Assembly (NCBI GenBank): GCA_965216945.1
Contig: CBDCGU010000003.1
Location: 3,526,653-3,590,652 of the forward strand
Direction: 5' to 3'
Source: Acidimicrobiia bacterium
GTDB lineage: Bacteria; Actinomycetota; Acidimicrobiia; Spongiisociales; UBA5794
DNA: 64,000 nt
Shown piece after piece: positions 1-44,761 of this stretch. Position numbers and translations under genes: made by a program. Within the stretch, counting starts at the first letter, position 1. Each line of letters opens with the position of its first letter. The notes beneath the pieces were generated by a model. That model saw only the letters and a program-made list of their open reading frames with translations, was not told where the DNA came from and made no database searches.

Positions 1-1730
1 AGGTCTTTCCACGCGAGCTCGTCGCCCCCGGCGACAAAACCCTGTGCGGTCCGGACGACCCCTTCTGGAGTCGTCTGCAGCATCGTTGCCGCCCGGGCGA
101 CGGCTTCGTCGACCAGTCGGGAGACGGCGTTCACGATCGCGTTCGTCACGAAGACCGTTGTGCGGCTGGCGAAGGTCCCTTGGCCACCGTCGTGGGCGCG
201 GCTGTCGCCGCTGAGCACGTCTACGCGATCCGGCGACACGCCCAGGGCAGCAGCGAGGACACGGCTTGCCATCACATCGGAGCCTTGACCGACGTCGGTG
301 ACTGTAGTGCCCAACAGAAAGCGGCCCTCCGGAGTCAACTCCAGCTCGAGGGTCTCCTCCTCGCCGAGTGCGGAATGCGTGACGAAGACTCCCCAACCGA
401 GGCCAACTCGCTCCCCTTGTGAGCGCCGGTGCTCGCGCTCCTGCACCCACGTGGCGTAGCGCTCCCGGCGGCAGAGTTCGTCAAGCATTGCCGGGAAATC
501 GCCGCTGTCGAAGATCGGATCGTGATCGTCGCGTCCGAGGTGCTGTCGATATGGGATCTCCTCCGGGCCGATGAGGTTGCGGCGACGCAAGTCGAGCGGA
601 TCCATTCCTATCCGTGCCGCCGCCATGTCGATCATGCGCTCTCGCACCAACGCGGTCTCTCCCGCCGCCGGGCCGCGAACAGTTCCGACCGGCGTCTGCG
701 TGGTGGCTACACCGCGGCACCGAAGGTCGAGACCCTCCCACCGGTAAGGACCGGGCAAGGTCTCGACGATGATCTCCGCCACCCGCCCGCCGATCGGGCG
801 AGGATAGGCGCCCACGTCATAGCGCACATCGTCGCGGAAGTTGAGGAACCGACCGTCCGCGGAGACGGAGATTCTGGCTCGGTGATGCTGCTCGCCGGCG
901 TGGTTGATGGAGATGAGGTGGTCGCGCCGACGCTCGGTCCACCGGACCGGGCGCTGTGTGACTCTTGCGGCCCACGGAACGAGGAAGTCCTCGGGATAGA
1001 GCTCGCCTCGCACACCGAACATCCCGCCCACGTCGACACGGTGGCAGATAACCGATGACGTCGGGATGCCGAAGAAGTCGGCCACGCTCGCCCGGGTGAA
1101 TTGGACGAACTTGGTCGGGCCCCACAGCTCCAGCACGCCGTTGCGCCACTCGGCGACGAGACCGCGCGGTTCGATCGGCAGCCCGGTGTGGCGACTCGTG
1201 GTGAAGGCTGATTCGACGATCACGGCGTCGTCATCGTCGTCGATCTCGCCGAAGGTTGCGGTGATCTCCGACAGCAGGTTGTTGCGGCCGTCGTCCCACA
1301 TTGGGGCTGGGTCGGTGGCGGTCAAATCGGAGACCGCCGGCATTGCATCGATGTCGGCGATCACCAGACTGGCCGCATCCTCTGCTCGGGCGGGTGTGTC
1401 GGCCACGATCACCGCGATCGGTTCCCCGACGTATCGAACCCTGTCAATTGCGATGACCGGCTGACGTCTGCCTGCCATCTGGATGGTCTCGGATTTGCGA
1501 ATCGGGATGGTGGGTACGACAGCGAGGTCTCCCGCCGTAAGCACGGCTTGGACCCCACGCATCGAACGAGCCCCGTCGGTGTCGATGGCGTTGAGCTTGC
1601 CGTGGGCGAAGAGGCTGCGTACGACGCTCATTGCGAGCTCGCCGGGCCGTCGCACGTCGTCGACGTAGCTGCCGAGGCCGCGAACGAAGCGCTCCGGCGG
1701 GGTCATCTTGGCAGCGCGGATCTCGCGCAT
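1..1730 (-). CDS. xanthine dehydrogenase family molybdopterin-binding large subunit (CoxL-like); 3' end cut by window edge; start ATG at 1730 (MREIRAAKMTPPERFVRGLGSYVDD...)
   Basis: Own minus-strand translation. The frame is open to the window edge, so it is absent from the ORF track. N-terminus and internal segments (ETLPGPYRWEGLDLRCRGVATTQTPVGTVRGPAAG; SVICHRVDVGGMFGVRGELYPEDF) parallel the 783-aa paralog at 27441-29792. Confidence 0.65.
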   Translation of the reverse strand, partial: MREIRAAKMTPPERFVRGLGSYVDDVRRPGELAMSVVRSLFAHGKLNAIDTDGARSMRGVQAVLTAGDLAVVPTIPIRKSETIQMAGRRQPVIAIDRVRYVGEPIAVIVADTPARAEDAASLVIADIDAMPAVSDLTATDPAPMWDDGRNNLLSEITATFGEIDDDDDAVIVESAFTTSRHTGLPIEPRGLVAEWRNGVLELWGPTKFVQFTRASVADFFGIPTSSVICHRVDVGGMFGVRGELYPEDFLVPWAARVTQRPVRWTERRRDHLISINHAGEQHHRARISVSADGRFLNFRDDVRYDVGAYPRPIGGRVAEIIVETLPGPYRWEGLDLRCRGVATTQTPVGTVRGPAAGETALVRERMIDMAAARIGMDPLDLRRRNLIGPEEIPYRQHLGRDDHDPIFDSGDFPAMLDELCRRERYATWVQEREHRRSQGERVGLGWGVFVTHSALGEEETLELELTPEGRFLLGTTVTDVGQGSDVMASRVLAAALGVSPDRVDVLSGDSRAHDGGQGTFASRTTVFVTNAIVNAVSRLVDEAVARAATMLQTTPEGVVRTAQGFVAGGDELAWKD

Positions 1731-1972: not shown

Positions 1973-3295
1973 TCACCCATCCTCATGCACCGTCCTTCCC
2001 GTTGGTTCCGCTCCCATGGCTGTTCCTGATCCGCCCATGCGAGCACCGGACCTTCTGGCCCAGACCCCCGCGAGGAGGGCAGCCATCAAGGAGACCGCAG
2101 CGATGCAGCCAAAGGCCGGCGCGTAGTCGTTTGTTGCGTCGACTATGAGACCAAACCCGGGCGGTCCGATGGTGTGGCCGGCGAGGAATCCGAGGACGAC
2201 GATCCCAGAGGCGCGTCCGGCCGCCGAGCTTTCTGCCGTGGCAATGGTGGCGAGCATGCCGACGGCCATCCACGATTGCACGCTGGCGCCGGCGAGCCCC
2301 GCTCCGATCCAGATCCAGCGCCCACCCCAGGATTCGGCGCCCCACATGACGCCGCAGGCGAGCATCGAGACGAGTGACAATGCTGCGATCGCCCTCCCAT
2401 AGTGGCTGAGCCGTTCGCTGAAGTGGCCCCAAGTGATTCTTCCCAAGAACCCGACGCCTCCCATGACCGCTGCCGCAGCGCCGGCGAGAGCGACACTGAA
2501 CCCAACCCGCTCCTCGGCATACAGCGGGAGATACGTGAGCAGCGCGCCCCCTACGACTCCCATCGACAAGCCGAGCGACGCTAGCCACCACGCATCTGTC
2601 GGCACCCGGCTCATCGGGGCGGCCTTCGCCCACGAGGCACCCTCGTCCGCTGGGAGGAACACGAGGGTCGAGGCGGCGAGGAGCCAGGCCGCGAGCGCAC
2701 CCAAGGCAAACGTCGGTCGCCAACCAATGCTGGCTGCCCCGACCGGGACGACGAGACCGGCGAGGACTACCCCTAGCTGGACCGCCGATTGCTTGATTCC
2801 GGTCAGCATGCCGCGTTTACCCGGTGGCACGTTGTGGGCGATCACCTTGTTCGTGCTGGGGTTGGCGACCGATTGGGCGACGCCTGCGACAGTCGAAGCC
2901 ACAATCAGCAAGGGGTAGCTGATACCCAGCGCAATGCCGATGAGCCCGATTCCGGCGAGCACGAAGAGCACCACGAGACTCCGCTTGCCGCCGATCCGAT
3001 CGGCCAGCCAGCCGCCGACAGGCGACAGGACGGCACCGGTCAGGGAGTACGCGGAGACGAGATATCCGATCTGCGCTCGGTTGAGCGATAGTTCACCGAT
3101 GAGCAGTGGGGAGAGCACACCGAACGCCACACGGCCGAACACACCGAGCACCATGGCGGCCGACAGGGTGAATGCGAGTCCGGCGCGAGTCAAGAGCGGA
3201 GAGGCCTCTAGGTGTGCCAGTTCAGTGGCCCCGTGACCCTCCGCGATGGCCCGCGCCTGGGCAGCGCCCGTTGACGGATCTTCGGCCGGGCTCAC
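1973..3295 (-). CDS. MFS transporter
   Basis: 440-aa ORF with about 12 hydrophobic segments; Gly/Ala-rich helix pattern typical of the major facilitator superfamily. Confidence 0.75.
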   Translation of the reverse strand: MSPAEDPSTGAAQARAIAEGHGATELAHLEASPLLTRAGLAFTLSAAMVLGVFGRVAFGVLSPLLIGELSLNRAQIGYLVSAYSLTGAVLSPVGGWLADRIGGKRSLVVLFVLAGIGLIGIALGISYPLLIVASTVAGVAQSVANPSTNKVIAHNVPPGKRGMLTGIKQSAVQLGVVLAGLVVPVGAASIGWRPTFALGALAAWLLAASTLVFLPADEGASWAKAAPMSRVPTDAWWLASLGLSMGVVGGALLTYLPLYAEERVGFSVALAGAAAAVMGGVGFLGRITWGHFSERLSHYGRAIAALSLVSMLACGVMWGAESWGGRWIWIGAGLAGASVQSWMAVGMLATIATAESSAAGRASGIVVLGFLAGHTIGPPGFGLIVDATNDYAPAFGCIAAVSLMAALLAGVWARRSGARMGGSGTAMGAEPTGRTVHEDG

Positions 3296-3308
3296 TGGTG
3301 GTTCGCTT

Positions 3309-3320
3309 GCGTGATCACGC
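3309..3320. promoter_or_regulatory. perfect 12-nt palindrome GCGTGATCACGC in the divergent MFS/cupin intergenic region
   Basis: Read directly; lies 14 nt from the MFS start codon and about 180 nt upstream of the first cupin gene. Confidence 0.3.
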
Positions 3321-3497
3321 GAGACCTGTGGCGAAGGCGGACGGCGGTGATCCGGCAGGTGCGACGCGGCGACGGGCGACTCGCGCCTTTACGGTATTGC
3401 CGCTCACCATCATCCGTTGCGGGCACCTCGCTGCACTGGTATACACTACACCGAGCGCCGCGAGCCGCCGCTCGACCGACGAACGGGAGTCAACGCC

Positions 3498-3845
3498 GTG
3501 CATGTGGTCCGCTGGAGAACCGCCGAGCCATATGTTCCGGCGGGGCACGAAGGAGTCGTGAACCGGCTCCTCGCAGGACGGGCCGAAGGTGAGATCGAAG
3601 CTGTCAGCGTGTGGCATGGGACCTTGGAACCGGGCGGCTTTGCCGAGCCACATGTGCACGAGCGCTCCGTCCAGATCTACGTCGGGTTGACCGGGCAGCT
3701 CGAAGTCGAGACTCCTTCGGGAGTCGCCAACATCACGCGCGGTGACGCAGTCATCCTCGCAGCGACCGAGTCCCACGGTATCCGAAACCCGGATGACGTG
3801 GAGATGGCCACCTTGCTCGTCGTCAGCGCCCCTGCGCTGCGGTGA
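3498..3845 (+). CDS. cupin domain protein 1 of 4 (GTG start; RBS GGGAG 9 nt upstream)
   Basis: PHVHE...G cupin motif 1 region; stop overlaps the next start (GTGA). Confidence 0.65.
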   Translation: MHVVRWRTAEPYVPAGHEGVVNRLLAGRAEGEIEAVSVWHGTLEPGGFAEPHVHERSVQIYVGLTGQLEVETPSGVANITRGDAVILAATESHGIRNPDDVEMATLLVVSAPALR

Positions 3846-4255
3846 CGAACGTGTCGACTACGCATCGGCCGGCGGAGCCCTCTCCTGATCGTGTTCGGGT
3901 CCTCGGCAGCGGGCAGCCGCGTCCGCCGGTGGACGTCGTCGTAGGGGCCGGTACGGCCGTGGCGGTCGTGTGGCCGGGCGTCGGCGCTGAGAAACGGTCG
4001 ATGCATCTGGTGTCCCTGGCCGCTCGAGCTCATACTCGGCACCTGCGCCACCGATCCGAAGCCGTGTACTACGTCATCGATGGCACGGGACAGGCATTTG
4101 ACCAGGACGGGTCCGCCGCTTTCGAACTTGGGCCGGGCTCGATGATCCACGTCGAGCCGGGGACCGGCTACAGGTTCGTGGCTGGCACGAATGGTCTCGA
4201 GCTGGTCGGTGGTCCATGTCCGGCGGACTCTCGTCTCTACGGAGACTCGGCGTGA
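3842..4255 (+). CDS. cupin domain protein 2 of 4
   Basis: Small beta-barrel cupin-like sequence; GTGA start/stop overlap with flanking cupins. Confidence 0.65.
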   Translation: MTNVSTTHRPAEPSPDRVRVLGSGQPRPPVDVVVGAGTAVAVVWPGVGAEKRSMHLVSLAARAHTRHLRHRSEAVYYVIDGTGQAFDQDGSAAFELGPGSMIHVEPGTGYRFVAGTNGLELVGGPCPADSRLYGDSA

Positions 4256-4614
4256 GCGAGCGCCTGCACCCGCTGTCGGAATTGGCGTGGGAATCGGTGG
4301 ACGCCCTCGTCGCCAAGAAAGTCATCTCCACCGACCGGATGACGGTCACCCGGTACCGGTTTCAGCCTGGCGGACGTTTCCCGCTGCACGTGCATCCCCA
4401 GCAGCAAGTCACCTTCGTCCTTGCCGGGCGCCTGACATTCACCACGGGCCGGGAGGAGGATGTTGTTGATGCCGAGAATCTGATCGTGATCGAGGAGGGG
4501 GCCCCGCATGTGGCCGTGGCCGGCCCGGAGGGCGCCGAAGTGGTGAGCATCGTCGTGCCGCCGCGTACCGCGTCGGACGGCATCACAATCCTCGAACCAG
4601 GCGGGGGGACGTGA
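4252..4614 (+). CDS. cupin domain protein 3 of 4 (GTG start)
   Basis: HVHPQQQ...G cupin motif; start/stop overlaps on both sides. Confidence 0.65.
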   Translation: MSERLHPLSELAWESVDALVAKKVISTDRMTVTRYRFQPGGRFPLHVHPQQQVTFVLAGRLTFTTGREEDVVDAENLIVIEEGAPHVAVAGPEGAEVVSIVVPPRTASDGITILEPGGGT

Positions 4615-4994
4615 TGGCGATACGGGTGTTCCACAGGGACGAGCCAGATCTGATGATGCCGATGATCGCAGCCGACGCGCGGCTGATCGTCTGGCCGGGT
4701 GTGGGGGCCCACACCGCCAACATGAACTACGTGGACATGCAGCCCGGCGAGTGCAACGTTCCGCATGTGCACGAATCGTCCGAGGACACGCTCTACATCC
4801 TGGATGGGCGTGGCTCGATCGAGGATCTGACCAACGGGGTTCGCCTCGAGTTCGAGGCCGGGGACGCCGTCCATGTCCCGGTTGGGCTGAGGCACGCTGT
4901 GGCGGCTGATCGTGGCTCGCGGATCGAGAGTGTCGGAGGCCCATGCCCTGCCGACCTGGGACTACTGCGTCGCCTCGGCGCCATCCCAGGGTGA
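4611..4994 (+). CDS. cupin domain protein 4 of 4; complete His3Glu metal-binding cupin signature
   Basis: G-x5-HVHESSE motif 1 and GDAVHVPVGLRH motif 2 (G-x5-PxG-x2-H). Confidence 0.7.
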   Translation: MMAIRVFHRDEPDLMMPMIAADARLIVWPGVGAHTANMNYVDMQPGECNVPHVHESSEDTLYILDGRGSIEDLTNGVRLEFEAGDAVHVPVGLRHAVAADRGSRIESVGGPCPADLGLLRRLGAIPG

Positions 4995-5046
4995 GTCGAC
5001 GGCCGTCCCCTGGGCGGAGGGCTGGCCGGAATGAGAAAGGGAGCCC

Positions 5047-5871
5047 ATGCGTATTGCGGATCTGTCGCACACGATGAACATCCACACTCCCGGTTGGGTG
5101 GGATATCCGGGCGGGAAGCTCTACTACACCCAGACGTTGCAGACGAACCGGATCGTCTCGCAGAGGATCGAGACGGCGCTGCACGTCGGCACTCACCTCG
5201 ACGGCGCGCTCCATGCGGCCGATGACGGAGCGAGCATGGCCGACTACGCCCTGACCCAACTCATCGGTCCGGGCGTGATCGTCGACGTCTCCGACGATGT
5301 CGACGACTGGGACGTGATCACGCCCAAGATGATCACCTCGAAAGTCGAGGTGCGTCGCGGGGACATTCTAATCATCCACACTGGTTGGCATCGGTACTAT
5401 GAGGGCCAGCCTCAGCAAGATCTCGTGCGCTACTTCTGCATGCACCCCGGCGGCACGATGGAGCTGGCGCAGTGGATGATCGACATGGAGATCTCGTGGT
5501 GGGGGATTGACGCCGGATCCGGCGACCACCCGATGAACACGACGATCCGCCACATGCGGCCGGATCTAACGGAGCGCTTCGAACAAAAGGTCGGGATGAC
5601 AGCGGCCGAGTTCTTCGGCACGTACCAGTTCACGCACGATCTGAGCGGTCGCGTGGTCGAAGACGATCTGTTCTTGTTCCACCAGATGATGTTTGGCCGG
5701 GGAATTGTGCACGCCGAGAACATCGGCGGGGAGATCGATGCTGTGCTCAACGAGCGCTGCATCGTAGGCGCCTTGCCGTGGAAGTACGAGGGCCTGGAGG
5801 CTTGTCCATGTCGGATCCTGGCCTTCTTCGACGTGGGTGACTCCGTCGAGGAGATCGTCGTCGGTCGATGA
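5047..5871 (+). CDS. cyclase family protein (kynurenine formamidase/arylformamidase-like)
   Basis: HVGTHLDGALH matches the HxGTHxDxxxH signature of the putative-cyclase/KynB family. Confidence 0.8.
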   Translation: MRIADLSHTMNIHTPGWVGYPGGKLYYTQTLQTNRIVSQRIETALHVGTHLDGALHAADDGASMADYALTQLIGPGVIVDVSDDVDDWDVITPKMITSKVEVRRGDILIIHTGWHRYYEGQPQQDLVRYFCMHPGGTMELAQWMIDMEISWWGIDAGSGDHPMNTTIRHMRPDLTERFEQKVGMTAAEFFGTYQFTHDLSGRVVEDDLFLFHQMMFGRGIVHAENIGGEIDAVLNERCIVGALPWKYEGLEACPCRILAFFDVGDSVEEIVVGR

Positions 5872-5955
5872 CCGGTGTACGGCGGACAGGCCATCCGGGC
5901 AACGCGTGCGACATAGGCTCTTCGCCAGCGAAGCGCAACGACGAGAGGATCGGAC

Positions 5956-6603
5956 ATGACCCGACCACCGCAGAGGACGCCGCCCGAGCTGAGATCGGAT
6001 CCGTTCATCCCCTACGCCGATCGCAACGACGTCTCCGATAGGGCAATCGCAGCGTTGCTCGACGGCACCGAGGAGCGAATGGGGTTCCTGCCCAACAGCT
6101 TCCTCCTCTACCTGCATCAGCCCCATCTCCTTCGAGAAGTGACCCGGATGAACAACACCGTGATGCGGCACCCGTCCAATCTGCTGCCCGAAGCCTTCAA
6201 GTACAGGCTTGCGCTTCTCGTGTCTCGCAACCACTCGTGCCGCTACTGCTGTGCTCACGAAGCCCACGTGATGAAGAGGAAGTGGGGCCTCGATGACGAG
6301 CGCATCGACGAGATTCTCCGTCTCCAGAATCCTGAAGATGAGCGCGAAGCGGCCGCGTGGGCATACGTTCATGCCGCTTCGCGCGGCCCCGAGCACGTGA
6401 CCGACGCGATCAGGAGGTGCCTGGCCGACAAGTTCTCGCCTGCGGAGATCATCGAGATTGCGTGCACTCTGGGCTTTTGGACCTTTTACAACCGGGTGCA
6501 CTCGAGCCTTGCAATCCCAATCGAAGAGCACCTTCACCTCGAGGCCCACTGGGTCGACGTGGATTCCCCGGCCCTCTCGGAGATGGACGGCACCGATGGC
6601 TGA
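5956..6603 (+). CDS. carboxymuconolactone decarboxylase (CMD/AhpD-like) family protein
   Basis: HSCRYCCAHEAH Cys/His cluster typical of the CMD/AhpD core domain. Confidence 0.7.
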   Translation: MTRPPQRTPPELRSDPFIPYADRNDVSDRAIAALLDGTEERMGFLPNSFLLYLHQPHLLREVTRMNNTVMRHPSNLLPEAFKYRLALLVSRNHSCRYCCAHEAHVMKRKWGLDDERIDEILRLQNPEDEREAAAWAYVHAASRGPEHVTDAIRRCLADKFSPAEIIEIACTLGFWTFYNRVHSSLAIPIEEHLHLEAHWVDVDSPALSEMDGTDG

Positions 6604-7624
6604 TTCCGCAACGACGACCAGGGCGCTGGGTGTTTGCGACGTGCATGGTCACTTCCTGACACCTGAAGCCATGCCGCTCCTCGGGCACGCCGAGCCCAGG
6701 GTGACGCTCGACACCTACAAGGGCGTACCCGACAACATCCATGTCGCCGGGATGCCGACGGGCGCAACCATCCACCAGCTCAGCTCGATCGAGAGCATGC
6801 TGGAGGACATGGACTCGGCCGGACTCGACCACCGCGTCGTCGCCCCGCCGCCGTTCACGTTTCGCTACTGGGCCGAGCCGTCCTACGGCGTGGAACTGAC
6901 GGCGCTGTTGAACGATGCCACCGCAGCCGCCGTCGCTCAGGCGCCGGATCGGCTCACCGGGTTCGCAACTCTCCCGATGCAGGATCCCGACCTGGCGATG
7001 CGTGAGTTCGACCGTGCCACCGGGGGCCCGGGGCTTCGCGGTGTCGAGCTGAGCGCCTCGGTTGGCGAGCTCAATCTGTCGGACCGGCGCTTTGCGGGTC
7101 TCTTCGCTCACATCGAGCAGTCTGGCCTGCCGATTCTCATCCATCCCGACTTCGTGCCGTACAAGCGGTGGAGGGACTATTACCTCATCAACGTCATGGG
7201 GATGACGGTCGAGACCGGCGCAGCCGTCGCCAACATCATCTTCTCGGGAATGCTCGAGCGAATGCCCGGTCTCCGGTTCTGCTTTGTTCACGGCGGCGGG
7301 GTTGCGCCATACCTGTTCGGGCGTTGGCACAAGTCGTGGGAGGTTCGCGACGAGCCACATCGTGACCTCGACGCCGACTGGCGCGGCTCGCTCCGAAAGA
7401 TGTTCTTCGACTCCTTGACACACTCGCCCAAGGCTATGCGGTTCTTGGTCGACATCGTGGGCGCCGATCGCGTACCCCTCGGCACCGATTATCCGTTCGA
7501 CGTCCGCCATGCTCAACCCGTTCGTGTGCTCGACGAAGTCGAGGGCCTCACCGATGCGCAGCGACAAGCAATCACCGTGGGCGCCGCTCGCGAATGGATG
7601 TACGGCGCCCCGGCGGGGTCCTAG
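6596..7624 (+). CDS. amidohydrolase-2 family protein, ACMSD-like decarboxylase/hydratase
   Basis: N-terminal DVHGHF (DxHxH), internal HGGG and GTDYPF motifs of ACMSD-type amidohydrolases; ATG at 6596 overlaps the CMD stop. Confidence 0.8.
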   Translation: MADSATTTRALGVCDVHGHFLTPEAMPLLGHAEPRVTLDTYKGVPDNIHVAGMPTGATIHQLSSIESMLEDMDSAGLDHRVVAPPPFTFRYWAEPSYGVELTALLNDATAAAVAQAPDRLTGFATLPMQDPDLAMREFDRATGGPGLRGVELSASVGELNLSDRRFAGLFAHIEQSGLPILIHPDFVPYKRWRDYYLINVMGMTVETGAAVANIIFSGMLERMPGLRFCFVHGGGVAPYLFGRWHKSWEVRDEPHRDLDADWRGSLRKMFFDSLTHSPKAMRFLVDIVGADRVPLGTDYPFDVRHAQPVRVLDEVEGLTDAQRQAITVGAAREWMYGAPAGS

Positions 7625-7663: not shown

Positions 7664-9427
7664 CTACGCCGGTGGGATCACGGGCATCAAGAGCTGGCTG
7701 GGATGATCGGGTCCTGTGTGCACGGTCACCTTTCCTCCGAACATCGAGGGTGGCCGGTCCCGTGATTCGTTGTGCCTGAAGGGGCCGACTCCGGTGAAGG
7801 TAACTCCTGAGGTCGCCGTCTTGCCCGGCCGGGCCGGTGGCTGCGGCACCGCCATTTGGTTCATGTAGTCGCGTCCCCGCACGCTCAGACCGAGCCGGTA
7901 CCCGGCCGGGATCACGATGGAAGTGGGCCAGATCTCGATGTCGAGCTCGTAAACCTCCCCTGGAGTGAGGGATTCGGGCGAATCGTGGGTGTGGTACGGG
8001 CGATAGGGCAGCGTGAGGTCCGGATCGAGGGCGCGATGTGACGCCCGAAGCCATCCGTGGGCGATGGGAGTCTGGGGCTCGTTGGCGCCTCGAAACGTGA
8101 TCTCGCTCAGATCGGGGGTAAACACCCGCAGCACGAGAAAGACGTCGGCGTCTTCGGTGTCCGACGAGACGAACAACTTGCAAGCCACCGGTCCGGTAAT
8201 CTCGGTCTCCGCCGCAAGGGGCTCGCTCAGGAAGGTCAGCCCGTTCCCGAACGCCTCGTACGTGCGCTCGTGCGACGTCTCGGGAACCGACTCGTCGAGC
8301 CCGGCGTCGAAGGCGTCGAGGTACCGCTTGGTCCACTGGGTGCGGGCGATCGGCCACTCGTCCTCGGCGCGGAGCTCGAACCGGTTGCCGGGATACCGGA
8401 TGTTGAGGCTGATCTTGGGCTGGTCGGTCCAGCCGGTGTCCTCACCGAGGAGGAAGTGCCCGAAGAACCTCTTTTGCAGATCGACGCCGTAGTCGGTGTA
8501 GAAGTGCGTCCAGTGCTCCAAACCGTGCATCTCGAGCCATTTTTGCTCCGACGCCGACCTCACGAACCCTTCGATGTTGCCTCGCAGATGCAGGCCGGCG
8601 CCTCCCCAGTTTCCAGCAGAGAGGAACGGGACGATGATCTTCGAGTAGTCGGGGATGCGGGCTCGCCAGTAGTCGTCCATGAAGGCATGGGTGAGCAAAT
8701 CCTCACCGAAGTCGGTGGCCATCGCACCCAGAACCTCGTCGATCTCGGTCGATGGGCCTGCGATCCAGTCACCGGTCATCCGGCTGTGCTGACCGCGACT
8801 CCCCAGCCCGTGCTGCTGGGCGAGGACCCGTCCCTGGTACCAGAGGTCTGGGAACGTGCACAGAATGCCGCCGTGGTGTGCGAGGTCGCGATAGAGGTCC
8901 GCAGCCCCCTCCCAAATGCACAACGCAGCGAGGTGTGGTGGCTGCAGCTCCGCCACCTGCCACTGGTTCATTGCGTAGTAGGAGATGCCGTTGATACCGA
9001 CATTGCCGTTGCTCCACTCGCGGGCACCTGCCCACTCGATGCACTCGTACAGATCCCTGGTCTCTCGAGGCGACCAGGGATCGATGAATCCCGGCGATCG
9101 GCCCGTACCGCGGGAGTCGACCCGGACGATGACGAAGCCATCCGGTACCCACTTCTCAGGATCCACGACCTCCCAGCTCTGGTAGGTGTTGGTGGATCCC
9201 TGCGCGGTCTCCGGGTGATCGCTCGTCATTCGGTCCCATTGATATGGAGACCCGTCGGCGAAATGGAGCCACTTCGAATAGGGCCCGTACGAGAGGACGA
9301 CCCCGTGTGTATCGTTGTCGTCAGGTCGGAAGACATCTGCGCGCAACACGAGTCCGTCATCCATCTCGATCGGCACGTCCCATTCGATGCGCATGCCGTG
9401 ACGAACCTCAGAGCGTGGGTAAGTCAT
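7664..9427 (-). CDS. CocE/NonD family hydrolase (S15 X-Pro dipeptidyl-peptidase-like)
   Basis: GISYYA nucleophile elbow, long alpha/beta-hydrolase plus C-terminal beta domain; start moved to MTYPRSE. Confidence 0.7.
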   Translation of the reverse strand: MTYPRSEVRHGMRIEWDVPIEMDDGLVLRADVFRPDDNDTHGVVLSYGPYSKWLHFADGSPYQWDRMTSDHPETAQGSTNTYQSWEVVDPEKWVPDGFVIVRVDSRGTGRSPGFIDPWSPRETRDLYECIEWAGAREWSNGNVGINGISYYAMNQWQVAELQPPHLAALCIWEGAADLYRDLAHHGGILCTFPDLWYQGRVLAQQHGLGSRGQHSRMTGDWIAGPSTEIDEVLGAMATDFGEDLLTHAFMDDYWRARIPDYSKIIVPFLSAGNWGGAGLHLRGNIEGFVRSASEQKWLEMHGLEHWTHFYTDYGVDLQKRFFGHFLLGEDTGWTDQPKISLNIRYPGNRFELRAEDEWPIARTQWTKRYLDAFDAGLDESVPETSHERTYEAFGNGLTFLSEPLAAETEITGPVACKLFVSSDTEDADVFLVLRVFTPDLSEITFRGANEPQTPIAHGWLRASHRALDPDLTLPYRPYHTHDSPESLTPGEVYELDIEIWPTSIVIPAGYRLGLSVRGRDYMNQMAVPQPPARPGKTATSGVTFTGVGPFRHNESRDRPPSMFGGKVTVHTGPDHPSQLLMPVIPPA

Positions 9428-9616
9428 ACACCGGTCTCCTCCCCGATCCGCCGATTGTGGCATACCGGATGCATGTTGTGAGAAGTGACGCGGCTCGCAA
9501 AGGAGCCTCGCAGCTCAGCGGAGAGACGAGCGACGAAGGGCCCTGCGGAACCTGTCGGGTGGAATGCCGTTGAATGAAACGCCGATGCCGCGCGAGTCCG
9601 ACAGAGTTCTCGCGGC

Positions 9617-10063
9617 TCAGATCTCGGTCGGCACCGCCACGATGGGCTTATGCGCCCCGAGTAGAACTTCTTGCGCGACACTGCCCAGGAGCAGTTTGCC
9701 TACTCGAGATCGATTCCGCACGCCGATCACTGCGTAGTCGTAGTTCCCCCTCTCGAACTCCTCGAGGATCTCCACTTCCGGTTGGCCTTCCACCACCTTG
9801 ACGTCCACATGCACATCCTGATCCTCAGCGGCGCCCATCGCCTGTTCGCTGAGGTTCTGCGCGACGTGGCTTACGACCACGTCGACGAATGCTTGATCCT
9901 CGGGGAGCTCGGCGACGGCCTCGGCCATGGCCTCCTCTGTCACGACGTGTATCGATACGACGGTTGCTCCGATGGTTCTCGCCATCCGTACTGCCTCGGC
10001 GGCTACCCGCCCGGAAGCCTCGGTCAGGTCGCTCGCAAGCAGAATTCGGTTGCGGGACTTCAT
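9617..10063 (-). CDS. universal stress protein (UspA family)
   Basis: MKSRNRILLASDLTEASGRV...AVIGVRNRSRVGKLLLGSVAQEVL...PIVAV: classic Usp motifs. Confidence 0.7.
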   Translation of the reverse strand: MKSRNRILLASDLTEASGRVAAEAVRMARTIGATVVSIHVVTEEAMAEAVAELPEDQAFVDVVVSHVAQNLSEQAMGAAEDQDVHVDVKVVEGQPEVEILEEFERGNYDYAVIGVRNRSRVGKLLLGSVAQEVLLGAHKPIVAVPTEI

Positions 10064-10247
10064 CAATACCTGCCCTTCACGGTCTGTCAGCGAAGATACT
10101 GGTGTCGTCACCTGGGTTTGTGGTTTTGACGGGGCCGTCTGAACCTCACCGGGTTTCGCAGAGGTCACTGCCTCCACCGAACTCGGGGAGGTTCATGGTT
10201 CATCCGACGAGTTGCGGTTCGTAGAGCGCCTGCGACGAACCACACCG

Positions 10248-10988: not shown

Positions 10989-12374
10989 TCAGCCCTGTGC
11001 GGCTGCCAGCGCATCGACCATTCCGTGCCCGAAGAACGACGTCTTGCCCTTCCCGCCGTAGCAGGTCTCACGCTCGTCGCCGGGGCCCAGAGGCTCCCAG
11101 TCCGGTGGGCAGGTCAGCTCCTGGGCAGTCGACTGGAGTGCCGCCTCGACGGCGCCGGGGGCCCACTTCGGATGCTTCTCGATGATCAGTGCGGCAACTC
11201 CGGCCGCATGCGGTGACGACATCGACGTGCCGTTCAGGTAGACGTATCCATCTCCGGCGTCGACCGTCGTGATGCCGGGGAAGATCGCGTTGAGTGGATC
11301 GAAGCCGGCGAACAACCCACCGTCGACCGGAACCGCACCGAGGACCGCATCCTGCACCGTCCCGGTGGCCCGGAAGTAGTCGCCTCCGGGCGCAGTCACG
11401 TCGACGACGGACATCCCGACCGACGAGTAGTCCGCGATCCACAGGTCGTAGCCTTCGATGCCGATGGGTCCCGTGGCCGATACTGTGACGACACCCGTCA
11501 GCTCGGCGGGCGCCACCCGGCATTCGTTGCCCACGTCACGCTCTTCGGCCGTGCCGGGAGGCCAGTCCGGGCTGATGCCGTCGGTCCCCGGGTGCTGAAG
11601 ATCGGAGGCCTGGTTCCCGGCCGAGGCGACGATCACGACGCCCTGCTGGCGCGCATAGGTGGCGGCGTCCTCGATCTCCTTGAGCATCGCCTTCTGCTCG
11701 GCGTCGGACTTGCAGTAGTAGAGGTACGGATCGGCGAACAGGCTCAGGTTGACCACGTCGAGCTCGGCATCCCCGGCGTAGCGCAGCGCCGCAGCCACCG
11801 AGTCGAGGAAGCAGTACCCCGCAACCGTGCAGGCCTTGAGCGCAACGATGGTCGCATCCGGAGCAATGCCGGCGATGCCGATGCCGTTGATCGGCGCCGC
11901 GATCGTCGATGCGACGTGCGTGCCGTGACCGTACAGGTCCTCCACTGCGGCATTGTTCGTGCAGTCGCCGTTGGCGATCTCGCTTGGATCCGCCGTGGGC
12001 GTGTCGTCGAAGATGAACGAGCACGACAAGTCCAGATCGAGGTTCGGTGCGATGTCGGGATGGTCCGTGTCGATCCCTCCGTCGATCACTCCCACCGTCA
12101 CGCCGGCACCCGTGGCATGCGAGTAGCTCTCGGTTCCTGCGTTGATCAGAGCCATGTCCCACTGACACGGTCCCAAGGGCTCTGCGTTTGGTGTGCCGAA
12201 TGTCGTGCCGTACAACGCCTCGCATATGTCGACGAGGTCGTCCGGTGGCGTCTCTGCCGAGCCCGGCGCCACGGCCGTGGCCGACACGAGACCGACGACT
12301 GCGGCCAGCAAGGCCAGCCTGCGGAATGTCTTCACTCCGTCCCTCCATCTCTGGTCTGGGCCGGAGACTATCAA
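10989..12374 (-). CDS. secreted S8 family (subtilisin-like) serine peptidase
   Basis: Signal-peptide-like N-terminus; Asp (VIDGGID), His (HGTHVAS), Ser (GTSMSSPH) catalytic triad motifs. Confidence 0.85.
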   Translation of the reverse strand: MIVSGPDQRWRDGVKTFRRLALLAAVVGLVSATAVAPGSAETPPDDLVDICEALYGTTFGTPNAEPLGPCQWDMALINAGTESYSHATGAGVTVGVIDGGIDTDHPDIAPNLDLDLSCSFIFDDTPTADPSEIANGDCTNNAAVEDLYGHGTHVASTIAAPINGIGIAGIAPDATIVALKACTVAGYCFLDSVAAALRYAGDAELDVVNLSLFADPYLYYCKSDAEQKAMLKEIEDAATYARQQGVVIVASAGNQASDLQHPGTDGISPDWPPGTAEERDVGNECRVAPAELTGVVTVSATGPIGIEGYDLWIADYSSVGMSVVDVTAPGGDYFRATGTVQDAVLGAVPVDGGLFAGFDPLNAIFPGITTVDAGDGYVYLNGTSMSSPHAAGVAALIIEKHPKWAPGAVEAALQSTAQELTCPPDWEPLGPGDERETCYGGKGKTSFFGHGMVDALAAAQG

Positions 12375-13995: not shown

Positions 13996-15288
13996 CTACC
14001 GGTTGACCCCCTCGTGGAGGCGGGCGACGGCTTCGAGCTCGGCGGCAACGTCGAACCTGGTGCGCTCTTCGGCAATCGCCGCCGCCATGCGCCGAGCCGC
14101 TTCGGCGTACGTACGGTCGGCGAGGAGGCGGTCCACCGCCCGGCCGATCTTCGCCGGTGAGGCAGTGGGGGAGAGCCGCACCCCTGCTCCGTGGTGGACG
14201 ACCCGGGCTGCGATGTCGTTCTGGTCCCGTCCCATGGGGATGCACAGCAACGGGACACCGGCGGCGAGCGCTTTCAGCGTCGTGCCGTGCCCGCAGTGAG
14301 TGATCACCAGCGCGGCCCGTTCGAGGATGGGTGTGTGGGGTGCCGAGGCGATCACATGAACGTTGCGGCGTGCCGGCACCTCGGCCGGATCGAGCATCTG
14401 GCCCAGCGTGACCACCGCCTGCACGGGTCTCTGCGCCAAGGCCGCAACCACCCGGCGCAGCAGGGGGCCCTGGTTCTGGTAGGTGGAACTGAACGCCACC
14501 AAGACGACCGGATCCTCGTTGTCCTCGGGCCACGGCGGCGCCCACGATTCAGCCCACGACGGGTCGTCGAGGATGGGCCCGAAGTAGTGGGCCTTCGCCG
14601 GGACGGTTGGTGATGCAAAGTCGAAGGTGGGGCTGGTGAAGACGAGGATGCGGTCGGTGACGAGGACCTGGTCCCAGAACGCAGCGAGCGGCGCGAGGCC
14701 GTGGACGGCTCGCGCCGCGTTCAGCGTGGGGAGGGCCCGATCGAAGATCCGGTTGGCCAAGGCCAGCATGGCGGTGTTCCGGGTGCGGCCGAGCGCGGTC
14801 TTGGGTGGTGCGAAGCCCGGTCCGATGGCGGGCGCCCCCTTGGTGGGCAGCATCCAGATGCTGGGCATCATCGGGGCGGTCGGGAGCCGGGCTGCCTCGG
14901 CGGCGATGATGGCGCCGAAGATCATGAAGTCGGGCACCACCACGTCGGGTCGCACCGTTTCGATCGCCTCGGCGGCGTCGGCGGCGAACAGTGTCGCGGG
15001 CCCGGCTACGAATAGGTCGCGGACCCGGCGCAGCATGGCGAGCGGACTGCGGAGCTCCCAGTCCTTGATGATGTCCTGGTCCGGGTCGAGCGCTGTGCGA
15101 TGCGGGGCCCGCTGCCACGCCGAGAACGTGCAGCCGGCGGCGAGGGCATCGTCTTCGACCGTCGGGTCGGCCAGGACATGGACCCGGTGCCCGCGATCGA
15201 GAAGCCGCCGAGCCACGCCGAGCTGGGGCGGAATCGTGCCGCCGCCCTCCCACATGGGGAACAGGAACTGAAGTTTGTGGGCCGTCAT
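13996..15288 (-). CDS. GT1 family glycosyltransferase (MGT/UDP-glycosyltransferase-like)
   Basis: C-terminal HCGHGTTLKALAAGVPLLCIPMGRDQ UDPGT-like nucleotide-sugar binding motif. Confidence 0.8.
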   Translation of the reverse strand: MTAHKLQFLFPMWEGGGTIPPQLGVARRLLDRGHRVHVLADPTVEDDALAAGCTFSAWQRAPHRTALDPDQDIIKDWELRSPLAMLRRVRDLFVAGPATLFAADAAEAIETVRPDVVVPDFMIFGAIIAAEAARLPTAPMMPSIWMLPTKGAPAIGPGFAPPKTALGRTRNTAMLALANRIFDRALPTLNAARAVHGLAPLAAFWDQVLVTDRILVFTSPTFDFASPTVPAKAHYFGPILDDPSWAESWAPPWPEDNEDPVVLVAFSSTYQNQGPLLRRVVAALAQRPVQAVVTLGQMLDPAEVPARRNVHVIASAPHTPILERAALVITHCGHGTTLKALAAGVPLLCIPMGRDQNDIAARVVHHGAGVRLSPTASPAKIGRAVDRLLADRTYAEAARRMAAAIAEERTRFDVAAELEAVARLHEGVNR

Positions 15289-23155: not shown

Positions 23156-24019
23156 GTGATCATCGATTTCAGGGTGCGCCCGCCCTACAAGGGTTTCGTG
23201 AAGCTGCACCTCTACCGTCCGCGTCCGAGCACACCCGATCCCGTGGTGTCGAGTGGACTTCTCCTTGATCTTCCGCGATACCGCTCGTTCGAGGAGCGGT
23301 CCATGGAGGCCTTCGTCGAGGAGATGACCGATGCCGGCGTCGACGTGGCCGTTGTCATGGGACGTCAGGCGCCGAACCACTACGGATGGATCCCCAACGG
23401 CGACGTCGCTGGCCTAGTTGAGGACTACCCCGGACGATTCCAAGGGTTCGGCGGAGTGAACGGCGCCGTCGAGTCCGACGCCCTGCGCGAGATTGAGAAG
23501 TGCGTCGACTTCGGGTTTAAGGGAATATGTCTCGACAATGGCTGGAACGATCCGCCGATGTATGACGACGACGAACGGCTATATCCGCTGTACGAGAAAG
23601 CCGAGGTGGCTGGGCTGATCGTGTCCCTCACGAGCAGCATCTTCGTTGGCCCCGATCTGACATACTGCATGCCGGTTCATATCCAGAGGGTAGCTCGCCG
23701 CTTTCCTGCGCTCACGATCGTCGTGCCACATGGCGGATGGCCGTGGACTACTGAGATGTGTGCCGTGGCGTTTCAAAACCCTAATCTCTACCTCGTTCCC
23801 GACTTCTACGGTCATATTCCGAACATGCCGGGCAGTGAGCAGTACGTTAGATCGGCGAACTACTTCCTGAGCCACCGTCTCATGTACGCCAGTAGCTATC
23901 CGGTCCGACCTCTCGGGCAGAGTGTCGAGCAATTCAAGGCGCTCCCGTTCGAGTCCGATGAGATCAGGGCTCGCTGCCTTGGCGGAAACGCGGCACGGCT
24001 ACTGGGCCTTGCCAGCTGA
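23156..24019 (+). CDS. amidohydrolase-2 family protein
   Basis: MIIDFRVRPPYKG N-terminus (TIM-barrel metal-dependent hydrolase type); paralog at 41540-42388. Confidence 0.7.
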   Translation: MIIDFRVRPPYKGFVKLHLYRPRPSTPDPVVSSGLLLDLPRYRSFEERSMEAFVEEMTDAGVDVAVVMGRQAPNHYGWIPNGDVAGLVEDYPGRFQGFGGVNGAVESDALREIEKCVDFGFKGICLDNGWNDPPMYDDDERLYPLYEKAEVAGLIVSLTSSIFVGPDLTYCMPVHIQRVARRFPALTIVVPHGGWPWTTEMCAVAFQNPNLYLVPDFYGHIPNMPGSEQYVRSANYFLSHRLMYASSYPVRPLGQSVEQFKALPFESDEIRARCLGGNAARLLGLAS

Positions 24020-24027
24020 GGCATCCA

Positions 24028-24909
24028 TTGGACGTTGGAATCAACCTGCCAAACGCAGGACCGAAAGCGACAAGGGCCAACATCGAAGCGGTCGCCGAGC
24101 GGGCCCAAGCGCTCGGGTTCGGGTCGTTGTGGGTTACGGACCATGTGATCCTGGCGGAGACCATCACTTCGCCCTATCCCTATCGCGACAACTACCTGTG
24201 GGACTACCCAACGGACGTGCTCTGGCTGGATCCCTTGATCTCGCTTGCCGTCGCCTCCAGTGTTGCCCCCAACCTCGCGGTTGGCACTTCCGTGCTCATC
24301 GGACCATTGCGCAACCCGGTGTTGGTGGCAAAACAAGTAGCCACTCTCGACTACCTGACCGGTGGTCGAGCGATTCTCGGGTTGGGAGCCGGTTGGAACG
24401 AGGAGGAGTTCGCCCTCGTCGGTGTGCCGTTTGCCGAACGAACGCGTCGGCTGCTTGAGATGGTCGGTGTCATGCGCGCCCTGTGGACCGGCGAGTCGAT
24501 CGACTTCGAGGGCGAGTATTGGAGTCTTCGGGACGCCCGTATGTATCCCGTGCCGGTCAACCACAAGGTTCCGATCCTTTTCGGCGGTCATAGCGACGCT
24601 GCGTTACGGCGTGTAGCGAAGGTGGCTGACGGGTGGTTGCCGACGCAGCTCACTCTTGCGCAGCTTCAAGACGGAGTGGAGCGGCTGCGCCGCTATTGCG
24701 ACGAAGCCGGGAGAGATCCCGATGAGATCACTGTCGTTGCCTGGCCGGGCAAGACGTATGAGTTGACGCCGGAGTCGCACGCAGCCCATGTTGAACTCGG
24801 TTTGGACGGCGTCATTGGCAGCACGCTCATCAGCGATCCAAGCGTCGACATGTTGATGGACACGATGGAGGAGTGGGCTGAGATTTGTGGGTTGGAGTCG
24901 ATCGGGTGA
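24028..24909 (+). CDS. LLM class (luciferase-like) F420-dependent oxidoreductase
   Basis: GFGSLWVTDHV, LGLGAGWNEEEF and ILFGGHSDAALRRVAKVADGW motifs; TTG start. Confidence 0.8.
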   Translation: MDVGINLPNAGPKATRANIEAVAERAQALGFGSLWVTDHVILAETITSPYPYRDNYLWDYPTDVLWLDPLISLAVASSVAPNLAVGTSVLIGPLRNPVLVAKQVATLDYLTGGRAILGLGAGWNEEEFALVGVPFAERTRRLLEMVGVMRALWTGESIDFEGEYWSLRDARMYPVPVNHKVPILFGGHSDAALRRVAKVADGWLPTQLTLAQLQDGVERLRRYCDEAGRDPDEITVVAWPGKTYELTPESHAAHVELGLDGVIGSTLISDPSVDMLMDTMEEWAEICGLESIG

Positions 24910-24933
24910 GCTCTTCGGTGAAGATGCGGTCGT

Positions 24934-24949
24934 GAACGAACGTTCGCTC
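24934..24949. promoter_or_regulatory. GAACGAACGTTCGCTC operator variant followed by CTTCCC, about 60 nt upstream of the second LLM gene
   Basis: Read directly; near-identical to the 56434 site, including the downstream CTTCCC. Confidence 0.45.
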
Positions 24950-25005
24950 TCTTCCCATGGGCGATGGGCGCTCCGCGGCGGCGGTGTCAGTGTGCGCCCG
25001 TCGAG

Positions 25006-26055
25006 ATGATGGAAGTCGGCATCCGCGTACCCGGTTCGGAATCGGTCGACGAGGTCGCCTCGTTCGTGGCGGAGCTGGAGGGTCGTGGGTTCTCTTCGGC
25101 GTGGGTCCCCGATTCGCAGCTGCTCTGGCGCGACGTGTGGATCACACTGGCCGCAGCAGCCCAATCAACGCAGCGGATCGCCCTGGGGACCGCCGTTGCC
25201 AACCCGGTGACTCGGCACGGATCTGTTACGGCCACGGCGGCGAGGACCGTGGACGAACTGGCCGGCGGACGCATCCAAGTCGGGATCGGCCTTGGGGGAA
25301 CGGCCACCTCTTCTGTGGGACTCGATCCGGCAACGGTGCGCACGTTCGAAGGATTCGTCAACGGCCTTCGCACCTTCCTGAGCCAGCAGCTCGCGCTCGA
25401 TGCAATCGAGAGCGACACCACCCAGCGGTCCCGGATCCCGCTCCTTGTCGGTGCGTCGCGCCCGAGGATGATCCGACTGGCCGGTCGAGTGGCGGACGGT
25501 CTCATCTACCCAGGGCCGTTTACGGAGGAAGCCGTGAGGGGCGCGCTACGTCTTGCGCGTGAAGCTGCAAGGCAAGCCGGTCGCAACCCGTCGCGTCTGA
25601 AGTGTGTGCTCGCACCACTGACCCATGTGGGCGACGAGCCGCTCGGCGAGTTGGCCGATCTTGGTCCCCACGTGCTCCAATCGATTGCCAAGGATGCAGA
25701 TCATGCCTCAAATGCTCACGCCGCCGCCATCGGTCATCGGACGTTCCCCGATTTGAGTCACGCCGTCGATTGGGACCACGCCGTGCTAGCTGCCACCGAC
25801 GTGGATCAGGCCACGATTGCGACGTACGCCGATGAGATGTGTCTCATCGGCACTCCGCGTGACGTGGCGCGACGGATCGAGGCCTTCGGATCGTGGGGCG
25901 TCGACGGCGTCATCCTCCGCGGTCTCCACCCGCATCGGCTGCCTCGCGAGCTCAGCTGCACGGTCGCAACCGACGTTCTGCCACGGATCGGCACCGATGA
26001 CATCGTGCCGTCCGGCCATGAGCTCGCCGAGGAGAAACCGAAGGCGGCACGGTGA
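25006..26055 (+). CDS. LLM class flavin/F420-dependent oxidoreductase
   Basis: Luciferase-like TIM-barrel pattern (GFSSAWVPDSQ, IGLGG). Confidence 0.75.
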   Translation: MMEVGIRVPGSESVDEVASFVAELEGRGFSSAWVPDSQLLWRDVWITLAAAAQSTQRIALGTAVANPVTRHGSVTATAARTVDELAGGRIQVGIGLGGTATSSVGLDPATVRTFEGFVNGLRTFLSQQLALDAIESDTTQRSRIPLLVGASRPRMIRLAGRVADGLIYPGPFTEEAVRGALRLAREAARQAGRNPSRLKCVLAPLTHVGDEPLGELADLGPHVLQSIAKDADHASNAHAAAIGHRTFPDLSHAVDWDHAVLAATDVDQATIATYADEMCLIGTPRDVARRIEAFGSWGVDGVILRGLHPHRLPRELSCTVATDVLPRIGTDDIVPSGHELAEEKPKAAR

Positions 26056-44700: not shown

Positions 44701-44747
44701 CTCGCACCTTTCCCTTGGAGAGAGTAGATTCACCACGCGAACGGACG

Positions 44748-44761
44748 TTCGTATGACCGTG
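44748..44761. promoter_or_regulatory. operator variant CGAACGGACGTTCG (followed by TATGA) in the divergent OYE / cupin-SO intergenic region
   Basis: Read directly; resembles the 60523 site CGAACGAACGATCGTATGA. Confidence 0.4.

Follow-up and report, generated by a model that had tools for sequence, protein, structure and literature searches.

Knowledge of how pyridine-, pyrimidine- and purine-like rings are degraded aerobically comes from a handful of model pathways, and to our knowledge the ring-opening enzymes that act after molybdenum (Mo)-dependent hydroxylation are unknown for most substrates and phyla. Aerobic nicotinate catabolism employs 2,5-dihydroxypyridine dioxygenase (NicX), N-formylmaleamate deformylase (NicD) and maleamate amidase (NicF). 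In picolinate catabolism, the 3,6-dihydroxypicolinate decarboxylase PicC, a Zn enzyme of the ACMSD family, receives its substrate from a Mo hydroxylase and passes its product to a ring-cleaving dioxygenase. For the trihydroxypyridine branch of nicotine catabolism, PKC/HpoH, a member of the PF04199 'cyclase' family, has been proposed to open the ring hydrolytically (PMC6214936, PMC9304392). Here we describe an operon from a 64,000-nucleotide stretch of an Acidimicrobiia bacterium genome (contig CBDCGU010000003.1; this whole 64-kb stretch is called the window below). At positions 3498-7624 (+), seven tightly packed, co-directional genes encode four small cupins (cup1 to cup4), a PF04199 'cyclase', an AhpD/CMD-like protein and a PF04909 Amidohydro_2 enzyme (amh). 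The operon is a mosaic of two conserved modules, A and B, each without a characterised member. We consider it fairly probable that the two modules belong to a Mo-hydroxylase-dependent pathway of N-heterocycle catabolism, in which a split bicupin serves as the metal- and O2-dependent ring enzyme; a pyridine-, pyrimidine- or purine-type compound is the probable substrate.

The bicupin is encoded by cup2 (3842-4255, +, 137 amino acids (aa)) and cup4 (+, from a GTG at 4611 or an ATG at 4614 to 4994, 127 or 126 aa). In an all-against-all comparison of the four cupins these two are paralogs (35% identity, E 7e-14), and cup1 and cup3 show no detectable relation to cup2/cup4 or to each other. A locus of Candidatus Spongiisocius that was reached via the cyclase (L005) encodes a single 279-aa bicupin protein, whose N-domain (residues 5-123) is 44% identical to cup2 and whose C-domain (residues 147-270) is 72% identical to cup4. 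A scan with cup4, restricted to one genome per species, yielded 80 related loci (81 with L005 added) from Acidimicrobiia, Thermoleophilia/Solirubrobacterales, Mycobacteriales, Propionibacteriales, Micromonosporales, Bradyrhizobium, Bauldia, Rhodovarius and other Alphaproteobacteria. A cup2 homolog lies directly upstream of the cup4 homolog in all 80 of them. The halves form one reading frame in 34 of the 81 loci and two genes in 47, the stop-to-start gap being -4 to +5 nt in 33 of the 44 split loci without cup3. Both states occur in isolates: the fused one in Aeromicrobium, Nocardioides, Mycolicibacterium, Phytohabitans, Acrocarpospora and on the R. ruber plasmid pmega_2 (WP_342661751, 260 aa), the split one in Bradyrhizobium elkanii, Rhodovarius and on a plasmid of Pantoea At-9b. 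Fused-bicupin matches of only 203-221 aa are N-truncated gene calls. Since cup2 and cup4 are paralogous, match the domains of the fused protein in order and co-occur in 80 of 80 loci, we take them to be the N- and C-halves of one bicupin, with the predicted metal site in the C-half; judged from these sequence relations, they very probably form a heteromeric unit.

All four cupins score above the Pfam Cupin_2 cut-off of 27.2 bits (42.1, 27.8, 43.3 and 42.3 bits for cup1 to cup4; E 7e-11 for cup1 and 3e-11 for cup3), cup2 only marginally so. The site of cup4 is of the His3Glu type (H52/H54/E58/H95), with the three His residues invariant in 86 of 86 homologs and E58 being Glu in 84 and Asp in two. 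In cup2, which lacks a canonical metal site, only H70, E/D73 and Y110 are conserved, and the N-half has lost its metal site. Invariant His-His-Gln-His sets are found in cup3 (H46/H48/Q52/H86, 22 of 22 homologs) and cup1 (H52/H54/Q59/H93, 57 of 57). An earlier note on this DNA had thus rightly singled out cup4 as the only cupin with a His3Glu site, but its description of the other three as partial fails for cup1 and cup3, only cup2 being without a canonical site. An AF2 model of cup4 is a cupin barrel (predicted local distance difference test score, pLDDT, 85.7), and Foldseek searches with this model returned only generic cupins (RemF, KdgF, TM1459, Ni-quercetinase and 5-nitrosalicylate dioxygenase) at TM-scores of 0.5-0.7. 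The best solved sequence match of cup4 is the C-terminal domain of B. subtilis quercetin 2,3-dioxygenase YxaG/QdoI (3e-7), with the similarity confined to the motif region. YxaG resembles the bicupin in its two tandem barrels, which arose by duplication, and in its His3Glu site; it differs in that the barrels of the bicupin are often separate polypeptides (47 of 81 loci), that the metal site is present only in the C-half and that a third cupin can be inserted. Ureidoglycine aminohydrolase was rejected as the identity of the bicupin (no NCBIfam match, E 0.91 in the PDB search, different ligand pattern).

The insertable third cupin is cup3 (4252-4614, +, 120 aa), a homolog of which occurs in 19 of the 80 bicupin loci. 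It stands between the bicupin halves in L088 and in the loci closest to the window (L006-L009, cup4 76-78% identical), and upstream of cup2 in 15 loci, mostly metagenome-assembled genomes of Solirubrobacterales. From this distribution and its conserved residues, cup3 is best regarded as a facultative accessory monocupin with a putative His3Gln metal site of its own. An origin as the detached sensor domain of XRE-cupin regulators was set aside, the similarity amounting to only 31% identity over 72 aa (E 5e-4). A single open reading frame (ORF) spanning cup2-cup3-cup4 in L009 (9104-12118) was dismissed as a triple fusion; it is probably a long-read assembly artefact, because the adjoining CN_hydrolase and cyclase genes of the same contig are frameshifted. 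The strict four-cupin block of the window is not conserved elsewhere; what is kept is the cup2-cup3-cup4 arrangement in the closest clade and, universally, the two-cupin unit.

Module A comprises cup2, cup4 and, where present, cup3, together with a 275-aa cyclase-family hydrolase, here the PF04199 gene at 5047-5871 (+, 274 aa; '275-aa' subfamily). This protein matches PF04199, the superfamily of KynB, isatin hydrolase and HpoH, clearly (4.6e-30, 105.1 bits against a cut-off of 23.1), and at least 97% of 168 family members keep its residues H46, H50, D52, H56, H161 and E224. Its subfamily is unusually conserved, with more than 2300 homologs (E<1e-10) that are 64-73% identical across phyla, from Acidimicrobiia to Rhodospirillales. 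Residues H8, H13, H111, H133, H212, H222 and C255 are invariant specifically in this subfamily. Compared to PKC of plasmid pAO1, the window cyclase belongs to a different subfamily (274 vs 310 aa) and is only 20% identical over 137 aa (E 0.13). The earlier reading of this gene as a KynB-like formamidase holds for the metal motif HxGTHxDxxxH (HVGTHLDGALH in the window), which is common to both, and not for the family as a whole, the score against the KynB equivalog TIGR03035 being 38.7 bits at a cut-off of 223.05. We propose that the protein is a metal-dependent amidohydrolase of the formamidase or lactam-hydrolase type.

The first and the last gene of the operon belong elsewhere. No homolog of cup1 (3498-3845, +, 115 aa) is present in any of the 80 bicupin loci; its homologs, monocupins some 114 aa long, come mainly from Acidimicrobiia. 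In four of the five intact cup1 contexts that were examined, an Amidohydro_2 gene (340-359 aa) is followed, with a 4-nt overlap, by the cup1 homolog, and in the fifth the cup1 homolog is preceded by an alpha/beta hydrolase. All five have a 323-325-aa cyclase gene convergently downstream. The amidohydrolases of these contexts are 44-49% identical to that of the window, the cupins 50-57% to cup1 and the cyclases 48-50% to pAO1 PKC. In one of the five (L099/L100), the amh-cup1 pair lies beside a CocE/NonD-family alpha/beta hydrolase gene that is 62% identical to the gene convergent to our operon at 7664-9463 (-; PF02129 and PF08530; TIGR00976 234.8 vs a cut-off of 66.3); copies 55-57% identical to the window gene also lie near the bicupin in L028 and L061. 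On these gene associations, cup1, the amidohydrolase and the CocE/NonD hydrolase would constitute a second conserved module, B, which is wrapped here around the bicupin module. The closest relative, L093 (cup1 81% identical), shares the order Mo hydroxylase-MFS-cup1. The L093 locus is decayed between 7669 and 12416, where MoCoBD fragments, an MFS remnant and a cup1 that diverges after residue 85 are followed by PIN, HicA and IS481-type genes.

The amidohydrolase of the window (6596-7624, +, 342 aa; PF04909 2e-31) has ACMSDs as its best solved relatives (human ACMSD, E 6e-46). Its DVHGHF, IHP, HGGG, GR and GTDYPF segments align with the human enzyme at the HxH motif, His174, His224, Arg235 (contributed by the partner subunit) and Asp291. 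The N-terminal 65 residues lie outside the HMMER alignment; the offset places Gly56, with no Arg nearby, at the position of human Arg47 (Arg51 in Pseudomonas). The protein has no NCBIfam match, and its genomic setting is not that of an ACMSD pathway: a 3-hydroxyanthranilate 3,4-dioxygenase (3-HAO)-type cupin is missing, and its orthologs neighbour cup1, a PKC-type cyclase and, in one context, the CocE/NonD hydrolase. By homology, it belongs to the ACMSD subfamily of Amidohydro_2 and is probably a non-oxidative decarboxylase. A scan of metagenome contigs with this protein gave only two distant matches (24-26% identity). KpiC, considered as an Amidohydro_2 dioxygenase analogue, was dropped, the paper on it showing that KpiC is an Amidohydro_1 protein.

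Between the cyclase and the amidohydrolase lies the AhpD/CMD-like gene (5956-6603, +, 215 aa). It has no Pfam match at E<=0.01, PF02627 included, and stays below the TIGR01926 cut-off (52.1 vs 81.8). PDB matches to AhpD-like proteins support the fold family, the best solved relative being the debrominase Bmp8 (6ohi, E 6e-10), and with Bmp8 and the AhpD-like 'peroxidase-related' proteins it shares a Cys-x-x-Cys motif, here within a C-R-Y-C-C sequence. It is 28% identical to the CMD gene of L099 and is distinct from the CMD-family protein encoded after the cyclase in R. ruber and in 16 of the 45 loci analysed below. A redox-protective or thiol-dependent role is a guess.

For the 45 loci whose flanks are complete, genes lying up to 10 kb to either side of the bicupin were counted. 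A Mo-hydroxylase large subunit, often present twice, was found in 36 of these loci, a cyclase of the window type and a CN_hydrolase in 32 each, and FAD-binding and 2Fe-2S subunits in 29 each; R. ruber-type CMD-family proteins (16), Bmp-type binding proteins (12) and VanA-type Rieske oxygenases (11) follow. Unbiased clustering of 1129 neighbour proteins gave the same ranking and additionally an XRE-HTH-cupin regulator, CoxG/SRPBCC, CMD, isochorismatase and NMT1-type binding proteins. The Mo enzymes belong to the XDH/CoxL/4-HBCR family (XDH/CODH/4-HBCR in NCBIfam), with no equivalog cut-off reached. In the window itself, tblastn with the large subunits of L088 and L090 detects a large subunit of this xanthine-dehydrogenase/CoxL type at 24-1691 (-), in one piece and with 36-39% identity over 553-564 aa. 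The gene (1-1742, -; start coordinate estimated) runs off the window start and lies just beyond the divergent MFS gene, downstream on the same strand. A complete three-subunit Mo hydroxylase set follows at 26052-29792. The conserved neighbourhoods bear out the earlier view of a functionally linked catabolic cluster. With Mo hydroxylases, CN_hydrolase and the 275-aa cyclase as partners, they speak for N-heterocycle catabolism and not for a 3-hydroxyanthranilate/kynurenine route; N-heteroaromatic catabolism, in line also with the Rieske partners, is thus the best of the three options that had been offered.

Two cultured carriers inform the order of steps. On plasmid pPAT9B02 of Pantoea sp. At-9b (L087, 8918-20442), the split cupin pair is flanked by a PRK07236/DhpH-type FAD monooxygenase on one side and by an MBL hydrolase on the other, with two isochorismatase-type amidases nearby and no cyclase. 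The R. ruber plasmid carries a formate dehydrogenase about 10 kb from the bicupin. The Pantoea locus also encodes an HpxZ-like protein (128.7 bits vs a cut-off of 135) and two Rieske oxygenases; these share 50-59% identity with the Rieske oxygenases next to the bicupin of R. ruber, a hint that the two loci have a purine- or pyridine-like substrate in common. In Rhodovarius crocodyli (L057, 12057-16752), gcvP, gcvH and gcvT stand directly beside the cupin-cyclase pair, which may be coincidence or the sign of a glycine end product.

From the family memberships, residues and neighbourhoods described so far, we infer the substrate class, the cupin chemistry and the following order of events. The Mo hydroxylases encoded beside the operon, or in some genomes Rieske oxygenases, would hydroxylate the ring next to the nitrogen. 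The ACMSD-like enzyme would take off a carboxyl group without oxygen and so supply the ring substrate, the same role as that of PicC, to which we liken it by description; we know of no 115-aa His3Gln cupin, the conserved partner of the amidohydrolase here, in the pic cluster. Next, the hydroxylated ring would be opened or oxygenated by the split bicupin with its metal and O2, giving a formamide or cyclic amide. The cyclase-family zinc hydrolase would cut this product, and an amidase, in most genomes the CN_hydrolase that the window lacks, would release ammonia. The AhpD-like thiol protein would probably handle redox side-products. The sequence of an oxygenase followed by two hydrolases is suggested by the Pantoea locus, where a DhpH-type monooxygenase comes before the cupin pair and an MBL hydrolase after it, and by the formate dehydrogenase of R. 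ruber. The proposal resembles NicX-NicD-NicF (PMC3831237, PMC7910607) in its metal-dependent oxygenolytic ring opening and in its formamide hydrolase and amidase, all after a Mo hydroxylase. The likeness is one of mechanism only, drawn by description: in place of the NicX fold, an alpha/beta hydrolase and an isochorismatase, the present system has a cupin, a PF04199 protein and a CN_hydrolase.

More tentatively, cup2/cup4, with cup3 as optional third subunit, may represent heteromeric split-bicupin metalloenzymes of a new family, which would act on hydroxylated N-heterocycles by ring opening or oxygenation and, with the new, highly conserved 275-aa PF04199 clade and the CN_hydrolase, form a widespread lower pathway not orthologous to NicX/NicD/NicF or HpoH/HpoI; we regard this wider claim as possible and not as probable. 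The genes of this pathway range over Acidimicrobiia, including sponge symbionts, Thermoleophilia, Mycobacteriales, Propionibacteriales, Bradyrhizobium and Acetobacteraceae. The literature searched, the coverage of which is incomplete, yielded neither a characterised ortholog for the cluster or one of its seven proteins nor a described counterpart of the arrangement, which the earlier note had already called other than textbook.

Several observations weigh against the oxygenolytic bicupin pathway. With no characterised ortholog in either module, the assignment of substrate and chemistry is made at the level of families. The His3Glu cupins include isomerases, lyases and decarboxylases and, with a variant ligand set, ureidoglycine aminohydrolase. 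The generic fold matches of cup4 do not discriminate between functions, and a single-sequence AF2 model of concatenated cup2 and cup4, computed with no alignment, reached a pLDDT of 34.7 and was unusable. The cyclase subfamily also occurs in unrelated contexts without cupins, as in L001-L004, beside B12-mutase and thiolase genes. The CN_hydrolase, present in 32 of 45 loci, is absent from the whole window. Finally, the AhpD-like protein has no ortholog in the 80 bicupin loci, and amh relatives occur in only five of them, at 24-31% identity; the link of these two genes to module A is therefore specific to the source genome.

A first alternative, which we consider unlikely, is that the ring is opened hydrolytically. 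Here, the cyclase-family enzyme itself would open the ring at a C-N bond and an amidase would finish the reaction, with the cupins confined to an accessory step: a hydroxylation, a tautomerisation or isomerisation, a decarboxylation, or a release of ammonia as in ureidoglycine aminohydrolase. The trihydroxypyridine pathway of nicotine and 2-hydroxypyridine catabolism (PKC/HpoH ring hydrolase and NIT/HpoI omega-amidase; pAO1, Rhodococcus PY11) is the closest described system in family composition, and ring opening is assigned there to the cyclase-family protein (PMC6214936, PMC9304392). Like the bicupin loci, it has PF04199 and CN_hydrolase genes beside Mo hydroxylases and CoxG/SRPBCC genes, and it follows the same logic of hydroxylation next to the nitrogen and subsequent C-N cleavage. 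On pAO1 (L092, 7701-15828) the order Mo hydroxylase, Dabb, cyclase, FAD monooxygenase, SRPBCC/CoxG, CN_hydrolase is as around the bicupin, which stands where pAO1 has its FAD monooxygenase DhpH; pAO1 also carries two small cupins (114 and 116 aa) unrelated to cup1-4. Moreover, a true PKC-type cyclase belongs to module B elsewhere, the best NCBIfam matches of the module's CN_hydrolase include N-carbamoylputrescine amidase, which would fit ureido or amide intermediates, and an HpxZ-like protein lies near the Pantoea cupins. Yet the cyclase of the window is only distantly related to PKC, as described above, and the CN_hydrolase of the module shares no more than 27% identity with NIT. The canonical His3Glu site, conserved here, points typically, though not exclusively, to redox or oxygen chemistry. 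What leads us to prefer the oxygenolytic bicupin model, if modestly, is that the cupin unit is constant and the hydrolases are exchangeable: in Pantoea they are replaced by MBL and isochorismatase enzymes.

Less likely still is that the operon is a recombination patchwork, in which modules A and B were joined by rearrangement and serve different substrates or belong to a partly decayed operon. The cup1 and amh genes, adjoining elsewhere, are five genes apart here; the PKC-type cyclase, like the CN_hydrolase, is absent from the whole 64-kb window; the locus of the closest relative is broken by insertion sequence (IS) and PIN elements; and all seven operon proteins form singleton clusters at 90% identity. 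Against this, all seven reading frames are intact and their catalytic residues conserved, the genes are tightly packed on one strand with coupled junctions, and in other genomes both modules are linked to Mo hydroxylases. L006 and L088 are variants that lack the CN_hydrolase and have an Amidohydro_2 gene nearby.

The model of the earlier note combined a ring-cleaving dioxygenase made of all four cupins in one hetero-oligomer with a KynB-type arylformamidase and an ACMSD-type decarboxylase. Its observations stand. The seven genes lie on the + strand with the boundaries it had given, as confirmed by our ORF calls on the window and by the source genome's own calls on its 4.16-Mb contig, located by exact-sequence look-up (115, 137, 120, 126, 274, 215 and 342 aa; cup4 is called there from ATG 4614). 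The overlapping stops and starts of the adjoining cupin genes are present as well, cup2 beginning at 3842 within the cup1 stop (GTGA, 3842-3845), cup3 at 4252 within that of cup2 (GTGA, 4252-4255) and cup4 at 4611 through a GTGATG junction (4611-4616). So are the motifs HxGTHxDxxxH in the cyclase and DVHGHF, HGGG and GTDYPF in the amidohydrolase, for which ACMSDs are indeed the best solved relatives. However, overlapping junctions also link non-cupin genes. In the window the amh start overlaps the stop of the AhpD-like gene by 8 nt (6596-6603, ATGGCTGA), and in L090 the cyclase-cup3 and cup4-CN_hydrolase junctions overlap too, stop-start overlap being the rule across related operons. Overlaps alone therefore do not mark the cupins as a complex. 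The four cupins are not equivalent either: cup2 and cup4 are the putative halves of a bicupin, cup3 is optional, and cup1 is absent from all 80 loci that carry the others and pairs with the amidohydrolase elsewhere. Of the proposed hetero-oligomer, an assembly of at least cup2 and cup4 survives as very probable; one of all four does not. The analogy with 3-hydroxyanthranilate, kynurenine or 2-aminophenol catabolism fails in turn. The window shares with the kynurenine pathway the KynB metal motif and an amidohydrolase about one-third identical (by eye) to ACMSD that keeps its His, His, Arg and Asp residues. Yet none of the four cupins matches the 3-HAO family at E<=0.01 in the Pfam scan, the cyclase falls far below the KynB cut-off, the amidohydrolase has neither an NCBIfam match nor, by offset, the Arg47 of ACMSD, and the genomic partners are wholly different, namely Mo hydroxylases, CN_hydrolase and Rieske oxygenases instead of kynurenine-pathway enzymes. 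We thus hold the four-cupin model to be very improbable.

Hardly credible is a role in secondary-metabolite tailoring by RemF/TcmJ-like cupin polyketide cyclases and a 'polyketide cyclase' family protein. In its favour, cup3 and cup4 have RemF among their nearest solved structures, and PF04199 was historically named 'putative cyclase'. Against it, the neighbourhood consists of transporters, Mo hydroxylases, amidases and regulators such as are typical of catabolism, and no polyketide synthase, nonribosomal peptide synthetase or other biosynthetic core gene is found among the neighbour clusters and the annotated window ORFs, which are only part of all ORFs.

The surroundings of the operon can be described as follows. 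The cup1 gene starts with GTG, 9 nt downstream of a GGGAG. Divergent from the operon lies an MFS transporter gene (1973-3295, -; PF07690 1.9e-43) with weak NCBIfam matches to aromatic-acid/H+ symporters. The 202-bp intergenic region between the two (3296-3497) is presumed, from its position only, to be the promoter site; a sigma-70 consensus scan of this region gave no match, and Rfam, promoter and terminator scans across the operon region returned nothing informative. Beyond the CocE/NonD gene, three long ORFs on the - strand (9617-10177, 10989-12374 and 13996-15288; 186, 461 and 430 aa) look, from their translations alone, like a universal-stress-type protein, a subtilisin-like serine protease and a glycosyltransferase-like protein and are probably unrelated to the operon. 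A second catabolic block (23156-29792, +) contains an Amidohydro_2 gene, two luciferase-like monooxygenases and the complete three-subunit XDH/CoxL-type Mo hydroxylase mentioned above, and another Amidohydro_2 gene and an Old-Yellow-Enzyme reductase lie at 41540-42676 (-) and 43579-45003 (-). The window as a whole looks like a catabolic island.

The system is built from known superfamilies and is widely distributed, and nothing in it goes against established principles. For annotation, it follows that the labels 'kynurenine formamidase' and 'ACMSD' would be wrong for these genes. The bicupin itself offers a natural series of gene fission and fusion, from one chain through two coupled chains to two chains with an inserted third cupin, which is useful for studying how domain interfaces turn into subunit interfaces. 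Soil Actinomycetota, rhizobia and marine sponge symbionts often carry the bicupin module, which is a candidate for a new set of ring-processing enzymes. Its cultured carriers include Mycolicibacterium iranicum AT2.18, Aeromicrobium piscarium Co35, Nocardioides aquiterrae, Bradyrhizobium elkanii WSM2783, Rhodovarius crocodyli, R. ruber MSA14 and Pantoea sp. At-9b. What may be a new family of ring-cleaving enzymes presents itself here as a testable lead.

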